Below, one piece after another: positions 21,001-37,689 of a DNA stretch of 37,689 nt. Position numbers: made by a program. How positions within the stretch are numbered: the first letter of the stretch is position 1; every line of letters begins with the position of its first letter. Origin of the DNA: Spirochaetia bacterium (lineage in GTDB: Bacteria > Spirochaetota > Spirochaetia > DSM-27196 > Salinispiraceae); the NCBI GenBank assembly GCA_038204425.1, contig JBBRCZ010000019.1:1-37689 (forward strand), in the 5' to 3' direction.

Positions 21001-24000
21001 GGAAACGTCGACCGTTAGTCGTTTGCGTAGAGATTCTTGTTCCTGCAAGTTCTGTCCCAGCAACTGGATGGAGAGGGAAAGATCCTCAATTTCTGTAATA
21101 GCAGTATCTTTGACGATTGGCGCTGTCCAGTTGCCGAGTCGAATCTGATGAGCAGCTTCGGTTACTCTTAGTATTGGTCGGCTAATCCAACGAGCCATAA
21201 AGGCTCCCAGAAGAAGTGAGCCAACTAGAACCAAGAGGCCAAGGATCAATATCCATCCATTTAGTACTTTGAGAAACTCCAGTTCCGAATCATTGAAAAA
21301 ATATGGCCCATAGTGCCCAAAAGTTACCCGGCCCTCAAGGTTGGGCCCAAACTTGATCGGAAAAGTGTCCTGTTCATATGTTCCTTTCCAGCCCGGAGAA
21401 TAGCTTTCCATGACCATGGCCATATGGTTGAGCATGGCGGTGCAAAGTCCTGCATTGTGAGTTTCGGCATCCCAGACAAGCAAACCCTTTTCATCCACAA
21501 GCTTTACAACGTAACCCCTAGTAAGAGCCTCCAAGCCTATGGTGGTCAAAGCATCACTATTCCAGCCAGTTTCCTTGAGATAGGCTTTTGGCAGGGTGTC
21601 AGTGTAGACCTGCACTTCCCTGGCGATCCTAGTTTGAACCAGGATGCTAAACTGGTAGTTGACTAGAAAATTGGACGAGAACAATACAGCAAGGATGCCA
21701 AAAACAGCCACCAGAGCATAGGTCAGCATCAGCCTAGATCTTAGACTTTTCATTAGCAGTGCTCCCGCCAGCGATAGCCGAAGCCAATCACCGTTTCAAT
21801 ATAAAACGGTTGAGCGGTATCTTCTTCCAATTTCATGCGCAGATTCTTGATATGCGCATCGACTGTTCGGTCAAACCCTTGAAAGTCCTCCCCTAAGGCG
21901 GACTCGGCCAATTGATTTCGCGAAAAAACCTGACCAGGATGGTCCATCAGATGACACAGCAAGCGGTATTCCGTGGGAGTTAGATTCACAACTAGGCTGT
22001 TTTTAAGGCATTCCCGCGTTCTCCTGCTTACTACAAGGCTGCCATCAAAGGAGGACAGCTGGTCTTGCTCTTTTGCTGGCGCAGTTCTGCTTCGCTTCCT
22101 AATGGCCTCGACACGCGCCAAGAGCTCTCGTGGACTAAAGGGTTTGGTGAGGTAATCATCAGCACCGAGCTGAAATCCATTGATCTTCTCTTCTTCGGTG
22201 ACCTTGGCGCTTAGCATCAAAATAGGGACTTGAGAGCGGCGCCGTATAATCTGGCAGACCTGTTCACCTGATCTGTCTGGGAGCATAAGATCCAGAATCA
22301 CAAAATCAGGGTTATGAGCCGTAAATAGTTCTAGCCCTGATTTTCCGTCTTGGGCCTCAAGGACTCGGAAGCCAGCATGTTTTAAGTAGGAGCTTACCAC
22401 TTCTCTAATTGACGGCTCATCATCAATTACTAGGACTGTCATTTTTGAACCTAAACTCATTCATTTTTAAACGTAAATCCAACTCAGTCCCAAACCTGCG
22501 ATTGCAAGCACTATTTTATTCCCGTCACCGTATAGCCAGCTTCGGCCACAGCGTTTCGGATCGCCTCATCCTCTAGCGAGGAGGCGCTAATCTCGGCCTG
22601 ATTTTTTTTAAGATCTACGCGCACATCCTCTACGCCGGACAGACCCTTTAAGGCCGTTTCCACATGGGCGACGCAGTTTTTGCATGACATGCCTTCAATC
22701 GAAACTATCTTTTTCATCTTGTACTCCCTATAGATATGAGCAGCTCGTGCGCAGGATAGCGCGCTTTGCGCACCAGTCATTGTCCTACGCTTGGTGATAT
22801 TTTGCAAGGCCATGAGTACATGCATCAAAGCGGACACAAAGTGACACCATTTAAGCGCTTACAACTGCTTGTTTAGTATTTCTGACTCAATAATTCTTAC
22901 GCATTCTGCAGGTTCTTCAAAGATAGGGCTATGTGCTGAGTGCAGAAATGAATAGAACATTTTTGTAGGGGCGCTTATTTTTTTATAGTATTCTTTTGCT
23001 AATTCATAAGAACAAGTGTAGTCGAATATCCCATGAAAAAAATACATCGGAACTTCAAACGAAACACTCTCCTTGCCTCTCCACAGATTAATTTTATCGT
23101 TAAAACTATATTCACTAAAAAACAATGACGGAATAAATAGTCCTGTTATGACATTGTTCATAGTTCTCATCGTGCCTACACCCAAATCATGCATTGCTGC
23201 ATCTCTATGTTTGATATAGGTTTCCGGCAGTGGAGTGTTTAATTCTACTGGGCTAGTTAGTAGCTCTTGATAGGTTTTGTAATTTTTTGGCATGCCCTTG
23301 TACTGTTGCAGGATATATTCATAAGCTTTTTTTTCCGACAAGTTTTGGTACGATATTTGGGCTACGCCAATATACGCTTGGTACAGCTGAGGGTGCTTCT
23401 CAATAACTTTAATCCCAAGATAGGTTCCACCAGAGTGAGCCATAAGATAGCCCCGCACCACGTTGCTCAAGCCAGACTACGGTGAATATTTCGTCCAAAC
23501 CAGTAGGATACTGTTCAGGAAGAAAATAATCCGGCATTCCACCGTGTAGATAAAGAAGAACTGGATTTGATTTATTTTGACCTTTAATGAAAAAGCCCAG
23601 GATTGCCAAAAGCAAGCCCGCAATGAGCGTAATCAAATGCAAATTCATTGGTAAGTCCTAAACTTTAGTCTCAGTGATATTTGTTTATAGTATAGCTTAA
23701 AAGGGCAGGGGTGGCTGATCCACCCCAAAAATTTTTATACTATGATTTCTTGCGAAACAGTTTTACCAAAGGATGAGCTAAGATAGATTCAATAAAGGCC
23801 TTTCTGGCTGCTTGCTTGTGAATTTCTGAATAGGTAGGATAGGCATGGATGATGTTTTGTAAGACACGGAAAGGTTTGCCCAAGGCTTTGACAACTTGAG
23901 TTTCGTGGATCAATTCACCAGCACGAGGGCCTAAGATATGCGCGCCGATAATCCGGCCTCTTTTGTTCAGTATCCATTTTGCAAGCCCCGTTTCAACCGC

Positions 24001-36000: not shown

Positions 36001-37689
36001 CGTTGATAGTCAATTTTTTGGAGCACTATCATCACCATAACTTAGCTGAAGGTAAAAGTAGTAGCTTGCTTGCTGCCAAACTTGGATTGCACTACTCGTC
36101 GTTGCAATTAAACTTGCTGACTGGGACTAACTATGATGCTGATTTTACGCGCCTCTTAGAGCAATTTAAAATTTGGCATTTATACGTACCGCCAATTTTG
36201 CTTTCCTATTTAGGAGCTTGTCGCCAGATGAGCTATTTGGGCGCTGCCGTTGATAGTGACTTTGCTGGAGCTTTAGAATGCGCTATATTGGTGCCAAGCA
36301 AGTACTTGTCCGATAAGACAAAGCAACGATTTGTTGATACTTATACCAGCGCCAACCCCGACAGATTTAGACGCTTGCTTTCAGAATAAGGTCCGGGTCT
36401 TCTGACAGGGTTCTCAGTAAAGCTTCCAGCTCCTCAAGGCAGTCTGGGCAACTTTGAATGTGCCTATGAACTTTGGGAAGAATTTGGGCCACATCCTCAC
36501 CTCTAAGCAGCATTTCCGCGTATTGATTCATGAGTTCAAAGGTAGCATCACAATCAATATCATCCTCTTGGGTATCCATTATCATGGAAATCATCATTTG
36601 AGGGCTGGCTTGTCCCGCTATCTTGTGGGTTCTTGAGAATTTGTGCTGCCCTACCAATTGATCAAATAGTTGTTTAATTGTTTTAACTATCATTTCTTTT
36701 TCACTTCCCTCACCCTGACTCCGTGAGATCATGCACCGTCAATCCTTGCCTGTCTATTCTCTGTTTTAGCTTAATCCTAGCGTCGTGCAGCAACTTGTAT
36801 AGAGCATTTCTGTTGGTATCTAGTCGTCTTGCGGCTTCTTCTAAGGGTAGGCCTTTGAATGCAACTAAGCCTAGTGCTGTCAGTTGTTTAGGACTGAGAA
36901 CCTCGATCATAATTTTTTTGATCCATGCCATACTCATCTCGTTGTTGACTTTGGTCTCGGGGGCCGGATAGCGAGATTCCCACGCCTCGGGTTTGTCTTC
37001 TTCCATCAGACTGTCCAAGGATACATCCAACCATCTCTTTCGTCGCAGTTCAGTTAGCGCTACACGAATGCATATTTTGTAAGCCCAAGTGATAAACCTA
37101 GACAAGTTGTTAAAGGTGGACAAGTTTTTGAGAATTATCATCAGTGCTTCCTGAGCAAAATCCTCGGCCTGTTGGTCAAATTCTCGGCCCCAGGTGCGCA
37201 CCCAGCCTTTTAACGCCGGCCTTAGGCCGCGAATCAGCAAGACTCTTAAATCGGCGAGGGCGTGATCCTGATTCTTAGTTTGAGATCCAAGCACTTCCAA
37301 CCATTGTTCATTTGATCTCATGTGCAACCTCATTAAGTGCCAATAGCAGAACCAACTAGCTTGGGGTAAAAATCACTGTCAGAGCCTTTAGGATCTTGGA
37401 TTCCTCTCAAGAGTCAACTGGGCGTTGCCTCTTGAGAGGTCCCTGTTCTACGGTTCAAATCCGTCTTCTACGTGTAAAAAAAGAACAGGACAAGCCTGTT
37501 CTTTTTCAATTATCGGGGCTGGTCGCAAACCTGGGGTTTGCTGCTCGCCCATGCGGCCTGGCTGGTCGGATTCCTCTCAAGAGTCAACTGGGCGTTGCCT
37601 CTTGAGAGGTCCCTGTTCTACGGTTCAAATCCGTCTTCTACGTGTAAAAAAAGAACAGGACAAGCCTGTTCTTTTTCAATTATCGGGCT

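Follow-up and report, generated by a model that had tools for sequence, protein, structure and literature searches.

A spirochaete gene island combining cysteine dioxygenase and a CSAD-type decarboxylase with GlsA/GlsB-like acyltransferases: a candidate locus for a hypotaurine-headed aminolipid

To judge by what its genes encode, by their active-site residues and operon structure, and by the reappearance of the gene combination in other loci, a locus in a sediment spirochaete would make an acyloxyacyl aminolipid with a hypotaurine head group, possibly oxidised to taurine. We consider this reading, in which all substrates and the product are predictions, about as likely as not. The window analysed, 37,689 nt in all, comprises positions 1-37,689 of contig JBBRCZ010000019.1 in the Spirochaetia bacterium assembly GCA_038204425.1 (GTDB lineage Spirochaetota; Spirochaetia; DSM-27196; Salinispiraceae).

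Organisation and DNA support of the island

The island consists of a minus-strand operon of 11 genes (DedA, DUF547, cysteine dioxygenase or CDO, decarboxylase, orf100, YnjF-like, a YnjBCD-like ABC system and a hydroxylase::reductase fusion), which overlap or are separated by gaps of at most 43 bases throughout, and a divergent glsA-glsB-like pair. The CDO-decarboxylase pair and glsAB are on opposite strands, two genes apart, which speaks against a coupling of the two. The features are as follows:

23708..23726, no strand assigned: G+C-rich hairpin of 7 pairs (6 G-C) with A/T runs on both sides, 14 bases past the final stop codon of the operon
23740..25956, minus: 738-aa fusion of a membrane di-iron fatty-acid hydroxylase and a class-I pyridine-nucleotide disulfide-reductase-like flavoprotein (Pfam domains)
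25973..26758 and 26755..27588, minus: two ABC permeases, YnjC-like (BPD_transp_1)
27555..28790, minus: YnjB-type periplasmic substrate-binding protein (NF008633)
28777..29778, minus: YnjD-like ABC ATPase with a C-terminal extension (ABC_tran 5e-34)
29736..30362, minus: YnjF-like CDP-alcohol phosphatidyltransferase (PF01066 2e-16)
30402..30704, minus: orf100, a 100-aa open frame without detectable relatives (open frame only)
30742..32109, minus: CSAD-type PLP-dependent acidic-amino-acid decarboxylase (Pyridoxal_deC 1.4e-68; GADL1/CSAD structures)
32100..32759, minus: Arg-type cysteine dioxygenase homologue, 219 aa (4qm8 match, homologues with PF05995, AF2 fold)
32769..33626, minus: DUF547 protein whose N terminus has a hydrophobic, signal-like segment (PF04784 1.2e-27)
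33623..34330, minus: DedA/VTT-family membrane protein, at the head of the operon (VTT_dom 3.1e-22)
34331..34585, no strand assigned: 255-base intergenic region from which the DedA operon and glsA-glsB diverge, presumably a shared promoter/regulatory region
34586..35446, plus: GlsA-like lyso-aminolipid O-acyltransferase (Acyltransf_2 type; PF19576 2.7e-32, NF053697)
35439..36389, plus: GlsB-like amine N-acyltransferase (OlsB/GlsB superfamily; PF13444, NF053696)

An earlier survey of this genome had described GlsB and GlsA homologues (g02421, g02420), a cysteine-dioxygenase-family cupin with a 3-His site (g02417), a CSAD/GADL1-type PLP decarboxylase (g02416), and a YnjF-type transferase with a YnjBCD-type importer; all genes that it named are present where it placed them, and every identification held. 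The island is real DNA, since a contig from a sequencing run of another study (X3) spans 28798-36600 with one difference and a 90-95% relative has parts of the hydroxylase, permease, decarboxylase, CDO and glsB genes. In the intergenic region 34331..34585, an Rfam search returned no family at E<=0.1 and promoter-like sites did not exceed the shuffled expectation. The hairpin at 23708..23726, flagged as terminator-like on the plus strand, is likely the operon end, its minus-strand function being read from position only.

The CDO-decarboxylase pair and the acyltransferases

The CDO homologue, with no Pfam or NCBIfam match of its own, was recognised by its similarity to B. subtilis cysteine dioxygenase (4qm8, 3.1e-8), by homologues that carry PF05995, and by an AF2 model (pLDDT 94.6) whose best PDB folds were those of the Cys-bound B. 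subtilis enzyme (3eqe/4qm9). Residues invariant among 26 family members (S53-Y54-G55-R56, H81, H83, H132, H146 and Y148) include the 3-His site and Arg56, which makes it Arg-type in the Arg-type versus Gln-type distinction drawn in excerpts of PMC8050391. It is predicted to catalyse the conversion of cysteine and O2 to cysteine sulfinate.

The decarboxylase, whose best solved relatives were GADL1 (6enz, 3.7e-85) and CSAD (2jis, 4.3e-83), ahead of GAD67 (1.2e-76), keeps its conserved catalytic residues (the lysine of NPHK, the histidine of SHYS and the tyrosine of DYLFQ) and has F/S/Y at three motif positions. The Phe occupies the position of CSAD Phe94, which matters for cysteine-sulfinate binding according to excerpts of 10.1101/2020.09.25.308866. 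The predicted reaction is cysteine sulfinate to hypotaurine. The CDO gene shares 10 bases with the start of the decarboxylase gene, and the two lie side by side in 27 of the 45 CDO-subfamily loci as well as in 18 of the 80 decarboxylase loci from metagenomes, and hence constitute a conserved two-gene unit; as the metagenome set was collected with a pattern containing the Phe, counts of F within it are biased. Within the host order the two genes are unique to this genome: neither CDO (profile, E<=1e-10) nor the decarboxylase (E<=1e-40) was found in any of the 98 other genomes searched.

For the acyltransferases, whose genes overlap by 8 bases, the best NCBIfam matches were the GlsB and GlsA models (NF053696, 209.4 bits, under the cut-off of 300; NF053697, 191.2 bits, under the cut-off of 260), followed by OlsF. 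Nothing in the sequence of GlsB/GlsA homologues reveals their amine specificity. The host genome has a single GlsB match, and GlsB homologues occur in 23 of 400 other genomes of the host class, nearly all within the host order.

Recurrence with lipid genes and the composite nature of the island

The best located matches to the spirochaete CDO, GlsB and decarboxylase were all in two loci, L001 from a Kiritimatiellia MAG and L067 from a metagenome contig (identities to L001 and L067, respectively: CDO 48% and 45%; GlsB 44% and 42%; decarboxylase 54% and 56%), whose GlsA proteins were 37-39% identical to that of the spirochaete. On a single strand, L001 encodes a thioredoxin-like protein, CDO, GlsA, GlsB, an orf99 and PIN pair, and the decarboxylase, while L067 has CDO-GlsA-GlsB-decarboxylase inside 3.8 kb, so that in both the gls genes sit between CDO and decarboxylase. 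The two loci count as about one lineage, being 58-65% identical to each other. At a third locus, L077 (75% GC), a 50%-identical decarboxylase stands ahead of an N-acyltransferase like OlsB (NF052555, 3e-46) and an O-acyltransferase like OlsA (NF052552, 7e-37), the latter of another Pfam type (PF01553, not PF19576); no CDO is present on this 3.7 kb contig, which has only 278 bases upstream. The embedding of the pair, or of the decarboxylase, among lipid acyltransferases in the spirochaete, L001, L067 and L077 suggests that the product is bound in a lipid and not soluble. In GlsB trees, moreover, the spirochaete protein fell in a clade of 21-23 rows with those of L001 and L067 (SH-aLRT 99 in the 144-row tree; UFBoot/SH-aLRT 100/99 in the 41-row tree), and the GlsBs of 13 same-order genomes formed the sister clade of this operon-linked clade.

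Aminolipid acyltransferases accompanied 1 of the 45 CDO loci, 2 of the 80 metagenome decarboxylase loci (78 were without them, many of the contigs being short) and none of the 10 decarboxylase loci from the same phylum; the survey's count of five of 27 decarboxylase loci beside glsA-glsB was not reproduced, and its Spirochaetota and Steroidobacteraceae loci were not re-found. It is possible, though in our view rather unlikely, that two separate functions share a neighbourhood, with GlsA and GlsB making the aminolipid of the relatives (with glycine or another amino acid) and CDO and the decarboxylase making soluble hypotaurine or taurine to serve as antioxidant or osmolyte, regulated together with a remodelling of the envelope during stress. 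Such a division would fit the 26 of 27 paired CDO-decarboxylase loci without gls, the eight Bacteroidota loci examined, in which the pair has redox contexts (neighbours being a TseH-like/DUF6695 protein, thioredoxin-rhodanese, peroxiredoxins and LysE exporters), about 17 marine metagenome loci where a distant CDO is paired with the decarboxylase alone, and the thioredoxin-like gene upstream of CDO in L001. It would also fit an AU test in which grouping of the spirochaete GlsB with its 13 same-order relatives was not rejected (delta lnL 14.0, p 0.176). Arguing against it are the gls genes sandwiched between CDO and decarboxylase in L001 and L067, the decarboxylase-OlsB-OlsA order of L077, for which co-regulation alone is a poor explanation, the branch support for grouping with operon-linked GlsBs, and the lone GlsB of the host.

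Improbable, by our estimate, is a lipid head group that comes from the decarboxylase as an amine other than hypotaurine, either beta-alanine from aspartate or taurine straight from cysteate, with CDO in a side role or supplying only part of the pool. CSAD and GADL1 do accept aspartate and cysteate besides cysteine sulfinate, but Phe at the Phe94 position favours cysteine sulfinate over aspartate in mouse CSAD (excerpts of 10.1101/2020.09.25.308866). Likewise, the CDO-less contig of L077 and four gls-adjacent decarboxylase loci without CDO in the survey, not re-found here, would suit another amine, whereas CDO is translationally coupled to the decarboxylase in the spirochaete and shares its operon in L001 and L067.

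The island is composite rather than one unit. A glsAB-DUF547 locus, at times with a stand-alone reductase or YnjF/ABC genes, is common in the host order and operates there with neither CDO nor decarboxylase, so the acyltransferase family must use some other amine in those relatives, as the reading with separate functions would also have it. To this older lipid-associated locus we assign DUF547 (homologues of 43-50% identity adjoin glsA-glsB in 12 of 20 related loci), the reductase, YnjF and the ABC system. The survey's coupling of CDO and a CSAD-type decarboxylase to gls is partly sustained: the L001/L067 operons, L077, the GlsB clade and the uniqueness of the pair in its order speak for it, and the AU test (p 0.18) and the composite island qualify it.

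Among the remaining genes, the YnjB-type protein scored well above its model cut-off (NF008633, 490.9 bits versus 203; 2.6e-147) and was 36% identical to E. coli YnjB (1e-60) and 52% to its counterpart in a relative locus, L190. Corresponding values were 37% (ynjD region) and 54% for the ATPase and 32% (4e-21) and 31% (partial match) for the YnjF-like transferase; the permeases matched E. coli ynjC weakly and those of L190 at 35-39%. The DedA/VTT protein, weakly similar to E. coli YdjZ, is a candidate lipid flippase or scramblase, and in L161 a VTT gene adjoins an aminolipid N-acyltransferase. DedA, YnjBCD and YnjF form a module clustered also in E. coli K-12 (ydjX-ydjY-ydjZ-ynjA-ynjB-ynjC-ynjD-ynjE-ynjF, with DedA-family protein(s), YnjB, YnjC-like permeases, YnjD and YnjF), although gene order differs, YnjC is one fused permease there and two genes in the spirochaete, and gls, CDO and decarboxylase are absent; no published function for the E. 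coli cluster was found in the literature searched. For orf100, which may not be a real gene, there was no Pfam/NCBIfam match, no tblastn match in any fetched locus and no usable ESM Atlas match.

The survey's fused lipid hydroxylase does contain both domains (FA_hydroxylase 84-219, 2.4e-29; Pyr_redox_2 266-588, 1.2e-55; Pyr_redox_2/Pyr_redox_dim together 266-716), its attribution to the OlsE family amounting to a Pfam domain, FA_hydroxylase, that the two have in common. Family members of the hydroxylase half are stand-alone proteins of ~260 aa, and no second hydroxylase::reductase fusion occurred among the best 150. The reductase half, with a CTWSGC redox pair and HAYPTYSE read in the translation, is 41-48% identical to stand-alone proteins of ~470 aa, and the fusion scored under every NCBIfam equivalog cut-off for Lpd, MerA and GR. 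Among the matches listed, contig pieces of the independent run did not bridge the hydroxylase-reductase junction.

The proposed lipid and known systems

In the pathway that we propose, the Arg-type CDO would oxidise L-cysteine to cysteine sulfinate and the translationally coupled decarboxylase would convert this to hypotaurine, to whose free amine the GlsB-like enzyme would amide-link a 3-hydroxy fatty acyl group; the GlsA-like enzyme would then esterify the 3-hydroxyl with a second fatty acid. CDO and decarboxylase must act before N-acylation, because both require an unblocked amine, CDO in order to bind cysteine (together with the thiolate) and the PLP enzyme for its reaction. Putative further roles are lipid transfer across the membrane for DedA and hydroxylation of an acyl chain for the hydroxylase domain.

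The animal-type taurine route, cysteine dioxygenase plus cysteine sulfinate decarboxylase, was reportedly found in prokaryotes by Agnello et al. in 2013. The spirochaete has the same two enzyme families, adjacent and with Arg-type CDO residues and the CSAD-type Phe, but here, as in L001, L067 and L077, the pair or decarboxylase lies among lipid acyltransferases. As with Bacteroides GlsB/GlsA glycine lipid synthesis (and the fused ornithine-lipid synthase OlsF), a PF13444 N-acyltransferase is followed by a PF19576 O-acyltransferase, and adjacent overlapping genes are common to both pairs. In contrast to Bacteroides, the spirochaete scores fall below the equivalog cut-offs (209 vs 300; 191 vs 260), linkage to an amine-making CDO/decarboxylase pair is not described for Bacteroides gls loci, and the predicted head group lacks a carboxylate.

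Sulfonate amines can head such lipids, as in SAL of marine roseobacters, an aminolipid with a cysteinolic-acid head group (excerpts of PMC8319176 and PMC11631085). That amino-sulfonate is a C3 sulfonate, versus a predicted C2 sulfinate or sulfonate made in situ in the spirochaete. By the same excerpts, SAL involves the OlsA/PlsC-type SalA and an N-acyltransferase that is not an OlsB homologue and has yet to be identified, as opposed to the GlsB/GlsA type here. Cerilipin of Gluconobacter is likewise a bacterial acyloxyacyl aminolipid carrying taurine, and the only taurine-bearing one named in excerpts of a 2026 review (PMC12971839); there, taurine is added to the ornithine carboxyl in an ATP-dependent reaction by an enzyme not yet identified, whereas in the spirochaete the amine itself would serve as primary head group. 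An analogous linkage of taurine or hypotaurine from CDO and decarboxylase to the carboxyl of an ordinary GlsA/GlsB amino-acid lipid is very improbable, as neither the island nor the four-gene operons of L001 and L067 have a ligase-type gene. If the proposed hypotaurine pathway is correct, the spirochaete would possess a membrane lipid headed by a taurine-type group, of a kind not previously described in bacteria.

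Layout of the lipid island and its surroundings

The island (23740-36389) holds 13 open frames, for which the Pfam and NCBIfam results agree with all the gene assignments made in the survey's finding. Its minus-strand genes are spaced by gaps or overlaps of ≤43 bases, the stop of the dioxygenase (CDO) gene overlapping the start of the decarboxylase gene by 10 bases, and a 255-base intergenic region parts them from the plus-strand glsA-glsB pair.

Features of the island (coordinates, strand, assignment and its basis)
33623-34330, minus: DedA/VTT protein (Pfam/NCBIfam)
32769-33626, minus: DUF547 protein (Pfam/NCBIfam)
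32100-32759, minus: 219-aa cupin, CDO homologue (homology, predicted fold)
30742-32109, minus: PLP decarboxylase (PF00282)
30402-30704, minus: orf100 (open frame)
29736-30362, minus: CDP-alcohol phosphatidyltransferase, YnjF-like (Pfam/NCBIfam)
28777-29778, minus: ABC ATPase (Pfam/NCBIfam)
27555-28790, minus: YnjB-type binding protein (NF008633)
26755-27588 and 25973-26758, minus: two permeases (Pfam/NCBIfam)
23740-25956, minus: 738-aa fusion of a fatty-acid hydroxylase and a pyridine-nucleotide disulfide-reductase-type flavoprotein (Pfam domains)
34586-35446, plus: glsA-like (PF19576)
35439-36389, plus: glsB-like (PF13444), overlapping glsA-like by 8 bases
23708-23726, no strand: G+C-rich hairpin after the last minus-strand gene

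In a sequencing run of another study (X3) one contig spans 28798-36600 with 1 difference, and a further run, of a 90-95% relative, contains pieces of the hydroxylase, permease, decarboxylase, CDO and glsB genes, so that the gene order cannot be put down to misassembly in a single data set. The X3 contig pieces listed do not span the fusion junction (put at 25077-25230 or about 25160-25300), and indels were reported for none of the runs. In run X4 a low-depth contig (depth 4.3), from a 90-95% relative, skips 470 bases within glsB (window 35648-36119), which is not a multiple of three and could be a related-strain deletion variant or an assembly chimera. An Rfam search of 23000-37689 returned no riboswitch or other family at E ≤ 0.1, and promoter-like and terminator-like sites in the window were in no excess over the shuffled expectation. 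ESM Atlas searches yielded nothing usable for orf100 and DUF547 clusters only for the DUF547 protein.

Directly upstream of the island, 14514-23470 is a metal-resistance neighbourhood with no relation to the lipid genes: it carries a Cus-like RND efflux set (OEP, HlyD/CusB-like and AcrB-family), a histidine kinase with a response regulator, a heavy-metal-associated domain protein and a hydrolase fragment. At 1001-3000 and 4286-4819 the G+C content falls to 34-35% (47% for the window), with family-less ORFs and an rve_3 integrase-core fragment nearby, possibly a mobile-element remnant. On the other side, convergent to glsB, 36367-37333 carries the gene of an ECF sigma factor and a small one whose product weakly matches an anti-sigma factor (RsrA-like, of the zinc/redox type); an ECF sigma factor likewise comes after the decarboxylase in another locus, L073.

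Identity of the island's enzymes

The 219-aa protein has no Pfam match at E ≤ 0.001, PF05995 included, though many of its 57 homologues (E ≤ 0.001) carry this domain. It matches the Bacillus subtilis cysteine dioxygenase at 3.1e-8, and its structural model (pLDDT 94.6) has as best PDB matches the same enzyme (3eqe and 4qm9, the latter cysteine-bound; E 1e-11), followed by 3-mercaptopropionate and mammalian cysteine dioxygenases. H81, H83 and H132 align with the ligand histidines of the B. subtilis 3-His iron site, T-L-H146-I-Y148 aligns with S-L-H-V-Y of 4qm8, as in the outer-sphere Ser-His-Tyr arrangement, and H81, H83, H132, H146, Y148 and S-Y-G-R56 are invariant in 26 aligned family members. 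Homology, predicted fold and invariant residues thus place the protein firmly among the thiol dioxygenases. Its YGR (R56) aligns with YGR of the B. subtilis enzyme at the Arg60 position, where, in the accessible text of a published account, Arg marks the cysteine-specific 'Arg-type' and Gln the 3-mercaptopropionate dioxygenases ('Gln-type') (PMC8050391). On a Spirochaetaceae MAG contig (L045:488-748), the CDO gene is present only as an 86-aa remnant with 51% identity over residues 26-82, probably a decayed copy.

The decarboxylase (PF00282, 1.4e-68) is nearest to GADL1 of mouse and CSAD of human and mouse, with GAD67/65 behind. Its NPHK, SHYS and DYLFQ line up with human CSAD, the loop being conserved across homologues, so that the PLP lysine, stacking histidine and loop tyrosine are all kept (K305, H191 and Y335 counted along the CSAD alignment). 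The accessible part of a CSAD study names K305 and H191 and gives Tyr335 as the proton donor, and reports that the F94S change in mouse CSAD raised the Km for cysteine sulfinate tenfold and not that for aspartate (10.1101/2020.09.25.308866). At the Phe94 position, which is Tyr in GADL1 and Ser in GAD, the window enzyme has Phe, its NQLF lining up with the CSAD NQLF and the GADL1 NQLY. Agnello et al. 2013 reportedly defined a three-residue motif for decarboxylase selectivity, and these columns are F/S/Y in the enzymes of the window, L001, L067 and L077. The protein is no equivalog of DABA decarboxylase (199 against 900 bits) or PanP (139 against 606 bits). Its predicted substrate is cysteine sulfinate. 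A reading as an aldehyde synthase that has lost the catalytic tyrosine was rejected, CSAD Tyr335 being the Y of SYLFQ and kept in the decarboxylase.

The GlsB-like protein, the only GlsB match in its genome, has PF13444 at residues 50-143 (5.5e-9) and matches NF053696 over its full length (positions 3-301 of 303), at 209.4 bits against an equivalog cut-off of 300. The GlsA-like protein, whose gene adjoins and overlaps that of GlsB, carries PF19576 (2.7e-32) and scores 191.2 bits on NF053697 against a cut-off of 260. GlsB homologues from L001 (a Kiritimatiellia MAG), L067 (a metagenome contig) and the same-order relatives L190 and L196 reach 157-209 bits on NF053696. In both clades of the GlsB tree described below, every GlsA and GlsB homologue scores under the equivalog cut-offs, and none can by that standard be called a glycine-lipid enzyme. 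The gene context argues for an amine other than glycine for the GlsB of the window.

The hydroxylase half of the fusion (PF04116, 2.4e-29; His boxes HRLNH, HKVHH and HKIHH) has its relatives in a very large family whose members are ~260 aa long, and shares with OlsE a Pfam domain that 12576 representatives match (E ≤ 0.001). The reductase half has the FAD/NAD(P) and dimerisation domains, the CxxxxC pair (CTWSGC) and the C-terminal His-Glu (HAYPTYSE) of class-I enzymes, and scores under every equivalog cut-off (best NF004991, 346.9 against 620 bits; Lpd 327.7 against 408.8, MerA 316.3 against 454). Many stand-alone proteins of ~470 aa, several from Spirochaetota, share 41-48% identity with it. 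At residue 262 lies an internal Met-Lys-Tyr-Asp-Phe-Asp-Leu-Ile-Val-Ile-Gly-Gly-Gly, whose methionine looks like the original reductase start. No such reductase is fused in the top stand-alone hit or in the 8 longer proteins annotated among the best 150 hydroxylase matches, the partner domains in those 8 being rhodanese, methyltransferase, GHMP-kinase, histidine-kinase, DUF4139/DUF4140 or a repeated hydroxylase. The fusion is probably recent. Four relatives of window 25171-25956 from other organisms (P0312, P0318, P0326 and P0335) have the hydroxylase domain fused to rhodanese or methyltransferase.

The YnjB-type protein clears the NF008633 cut-off (490.9 against 203 bits), and the YnjF-like gene adjoins the ABC genes. 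With tblastn against the E. coli K-12 locus, YnjB gave 36% identity (1e-60), YnjF 32% and YnjD 37%, and YdjZ a weak match. The E. coli cluster (NC_000913 1833401-1841403) reads ydjX (DedA), ydjY, ydjZ (DedA), ynjA, ynjB, ynjC, ynjD, ynjE, ynjF, and shares with the window (25973-30362 and 33623-34330) a DedA protein, the YnjBCD-like ABC system and the YnjF-like CDP-alcohol transferase. This likeness hints that the E. coli DedA/YnjBCD/YnjF module may be lipid-related; the literature searched gave no published function for YnjF, ynjBCD or ydjXYZ.

An order-wide aminolipid locus with additions

Among 400 other genomes sampled from the class, 23 have a GlsB homologue (E ≤ 1e-30), almost all of them in the same order, and several of the proteins agree fully with records under the name Spirochaetaceae or Spirochaetota bacterium, which gives their phylum. 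In the 20 kin loci fetched, glsA adjoins glsB in all but one (19/20), a DUF547 gene (43-50% to that of the window) is present in 12, mostly within ~4 kb of glsAB (L189-L203; for example L196:3805-8872, L200:9692-16484 and L203:3877-10631), and a stand-alone reductase (36-39% to the C-terminal half of the fusion) adjoins DUF547 in four. In L190, YnjF and the ABC system (52-54%) are present as well. Neither CDO nor the decarboxylase was found in any of the 20 loci, and searches of 98 other genomes of the order, many incomplete, with the decarboxylase (E ≤ 1e-40) and the CDO profile (E ≤ 1e-10) were each negative throughout. Compared with the kin loci examined, the island has therefore gained CDO, the decarboxylase, orf100, DedA and the hydroxylase domain, and its remainder is an order-wide aminolipid locus. 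Two linkages follow from these comparisons: that of glsAB-type genes with DUF547 and a disulfide-reductase-like protein in these spirochaetes, and that of an E. coli-type DedA/YnjBCD/YnjF module with a lipid locus. Elsewhere, an OlsF-type fused aminolipid synthase lies beside a Pyr_redox reductase in another spirochaete genome (L160:9466-12742), and at L161:5793-10494 an alkaline phosphatase and a VTT/DedA gene lie beside a GNAT-type N-acyltransferase.

In a 144-row tree the GlsB of the window falls in an 11-row clade (SH-aLRT 96) nested in one of 23 rows (99), together with the L001 and L067 GlsBs, a Spirochaeta dissipatitropha protein and metagenome proteins. Fourteen same-order GlsBs are in the sister 96-row clade (95), other kin rows being more basal. 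A 41-row tree supports a 21-row clade of the window, L001 and L067 GlsBs at 100/99, and the protein is 50-53% identical to members of its own clade against 34-46% to same-order relatives. Constraining it with 13 same-order relatives, all 20 clade members being set as the other side, gave no significant difference in an AU test (delta lnL 14.0, p 0.176). Its grouping with the L001 and L067 GlsBs is thus the best estimate, not proven.

A predicted hypotaurine-headed aminolipid

We propose that CDO, which requires O2, would oxidise cysteine to cysteine sulfinate, that decarboxylation of the latter would give hypotaurine, and that the GlsB-like enzyme would then N-acylate this amine with a 3-hydroxy fatty acid, to be O-acylated by the GlsA-like enzyme. 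The steps are placed in this order because CDO and the PLP enzyme both need the free amine. Because hypotaurine is readily oxidised, taurine may be what heads the mature lipid. Flipping of the lipid is a candidate role for DedA, and hydroxylation of an acyl chain one for the hydroxylase. This would be a predicted variant of the aminolipid pathway, for which gene content, active-site residues and a recurring gene order speak, and we consider the chances that a hypotaurine- or taurine-headed lipid is made as proposed to be about even.

The recurrent order comes from three loci outside the window in which the decarboxylase is linked with aminolipid synthases (L001, L067 and the metagenome contig L077). 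In L001, on one strand, a thioredoxin-like gene is followed by CDO (48% to the window), GlsA (37%), GlsB (44%), a small ORF with a PIN-domain gene, and the decarboxylase (54%); the small ORF and PIN-domain gene between glsB and the decarboxylase (L001:3471-4189) form a toxin-antitoxin-like pair. L067 has CDO (45%), GlsA (39%), GlsB (42%) and the decarboxylase (56%) within 3.8 kb. The two loci are 58-65% identical and therefore represent about one lineage. In L077 (75% G+C), a decarboxylase 50% identical to that of the window precedes an OlsB-like N-acyltransferase (NF052555, 3e-46) and an OlsA-like PF01553 O-acyltransferase (NF052552, 7e-37), both under cut-off. As this O-acyltransferase is of another, non-homologous family, L077 looks like an independent recruitment of this decarboxylase type to aminolipid synthesis; its 3.7-kb contig, with just 278 bases upstream of the decarboxylase, shows no CDO. 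Two further pairs of CDO and GlsB matches on contigs of equal length, P0002 with P0200 (7370 bases) and P0004 with P0194 (5093 bases), hint at co-location. The decarboxylases adjacent to gls genes that the survey had noted in Spirochaetota and Steroidobacteraceae were not re-found on searching the decarboxylase against 60 relatives and 400 genomes of the phylum and GlsB against 400 genomes each of the phylum and the class, none of the resulting loci (L057-L066, L157-L165 and L189-L208) having gls genes beside a decarboxylase.

That two unrelated functions merely lie side by side is the next best explanation, possible if clearly less probable, and its main support, with the pair making a soluble product, is that CDO and the decarboxylase mostly occur together without lipid genes (45 CDO loci and 80 metagenome loci). 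Of the former, from a CDO-alignment scan with one genome per species, 27 have a decarboxylase homologue in the fetched stretch, mostly directly downstream, nearly all in Bacteroidota MAGs. The eight annotated Bacteroidota pairs have no gls genes; in each the decarboxylase is followed by a TseH-like (NlpC/P60-type)/DUF6695 protein of ~325 aa (L007:10010-13116, L009:9962-13077, L010:9989-13059, L014:9938-13056, L018:9992-13394 and L022:9914-13033; also L002 and L030), with thioredoxin-rhodanese fusions, AhpC/TSA peroxiredoxins, CMD, DsrE, YceI and LysE exporters as neighbours. This trio looks like a separate, predicted redox-linked hypotaurine module. In the metagenome scan with the decarboxylase alignment, CDO homologues adjoin the decarboxylase in 18 of the 80 loci, 17 of them distant (20-28% identity), and 78 of the 80 have no aminolipid genes. 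The two genes hence form a conserved unit that mostly stands apart from lipid genes. The module with the acyltransferases is rare in the class of the L001 genome too, the CDO profile finding none in 300 other sampled genomes.

It is unlikely that the same decarboxylase supplies a different amine. For the GlsB-type acyltransferases, we know of no sequence rule for head-group choice. The capnine/sulfobacin type of sulfonolipid route requires an AONS/Spt-like PLP acyltransferase, was checked by Pfam and is rejected, such an enzyme being absent from the locus. A cerilipin-like taurine amide is very improbable. Taurine figures in the accessible parts of 2024 and 2026 reviews only as an amide on ornithine lipid (2026: PMC12971839).

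The aminolipid head groups given in the accessible parts of these reviews are ornithine, glutamine, glycine, lysine and cysteinolic acid (2026: PMC12971839), and the roseobacter sulfonate aminolipid is described, in the available portions of two papers, as made by an N-acyltransferase that is not OlsB-like and is still unknown (PMC8319176, PMC11631085). The literature searched, with subscription journals largely outside it, gave no example of a bacterial hypotaurine or taurine aminolipid.

More speculatively, and with a rather low probability, CDO, the CSAD-type decarboxylase and the N- and O-acyltransferases may form a rare, horizontally mobile four-gene module making N-acyloxyacyl-hypotaurine. 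Anchored in the membrane, this lipid would serve as a sacrificial antioxidant and would itself be oxidised there to the taurine (sulfonate) form on exposure of otherwise anaerobic sediment bacteria to oxygen. Such a lipid would explain the O2 need of both committed enzymes, the presence of soluble-type CDO-decarboxylase pairs among peroxiredoxins and thioredoxins, and the disulfide-reductase-like flavoprotein in the lipid locus. Ciliates have taurolipids, of which a sulfinate-headed lipid, if real, would be the bacterial counterpart. Were the proposed hypotaurine pathway correct, the aminolipids would gain a new head group, and the first whose synthesis in situ is predicted from dedicated enzymes with genes alongside those of the acyltransferases; bacterial CDO/CSAD pairs would have a physiological role, and the four-gene cassette would be directly testable by expression and mass spectrometry.
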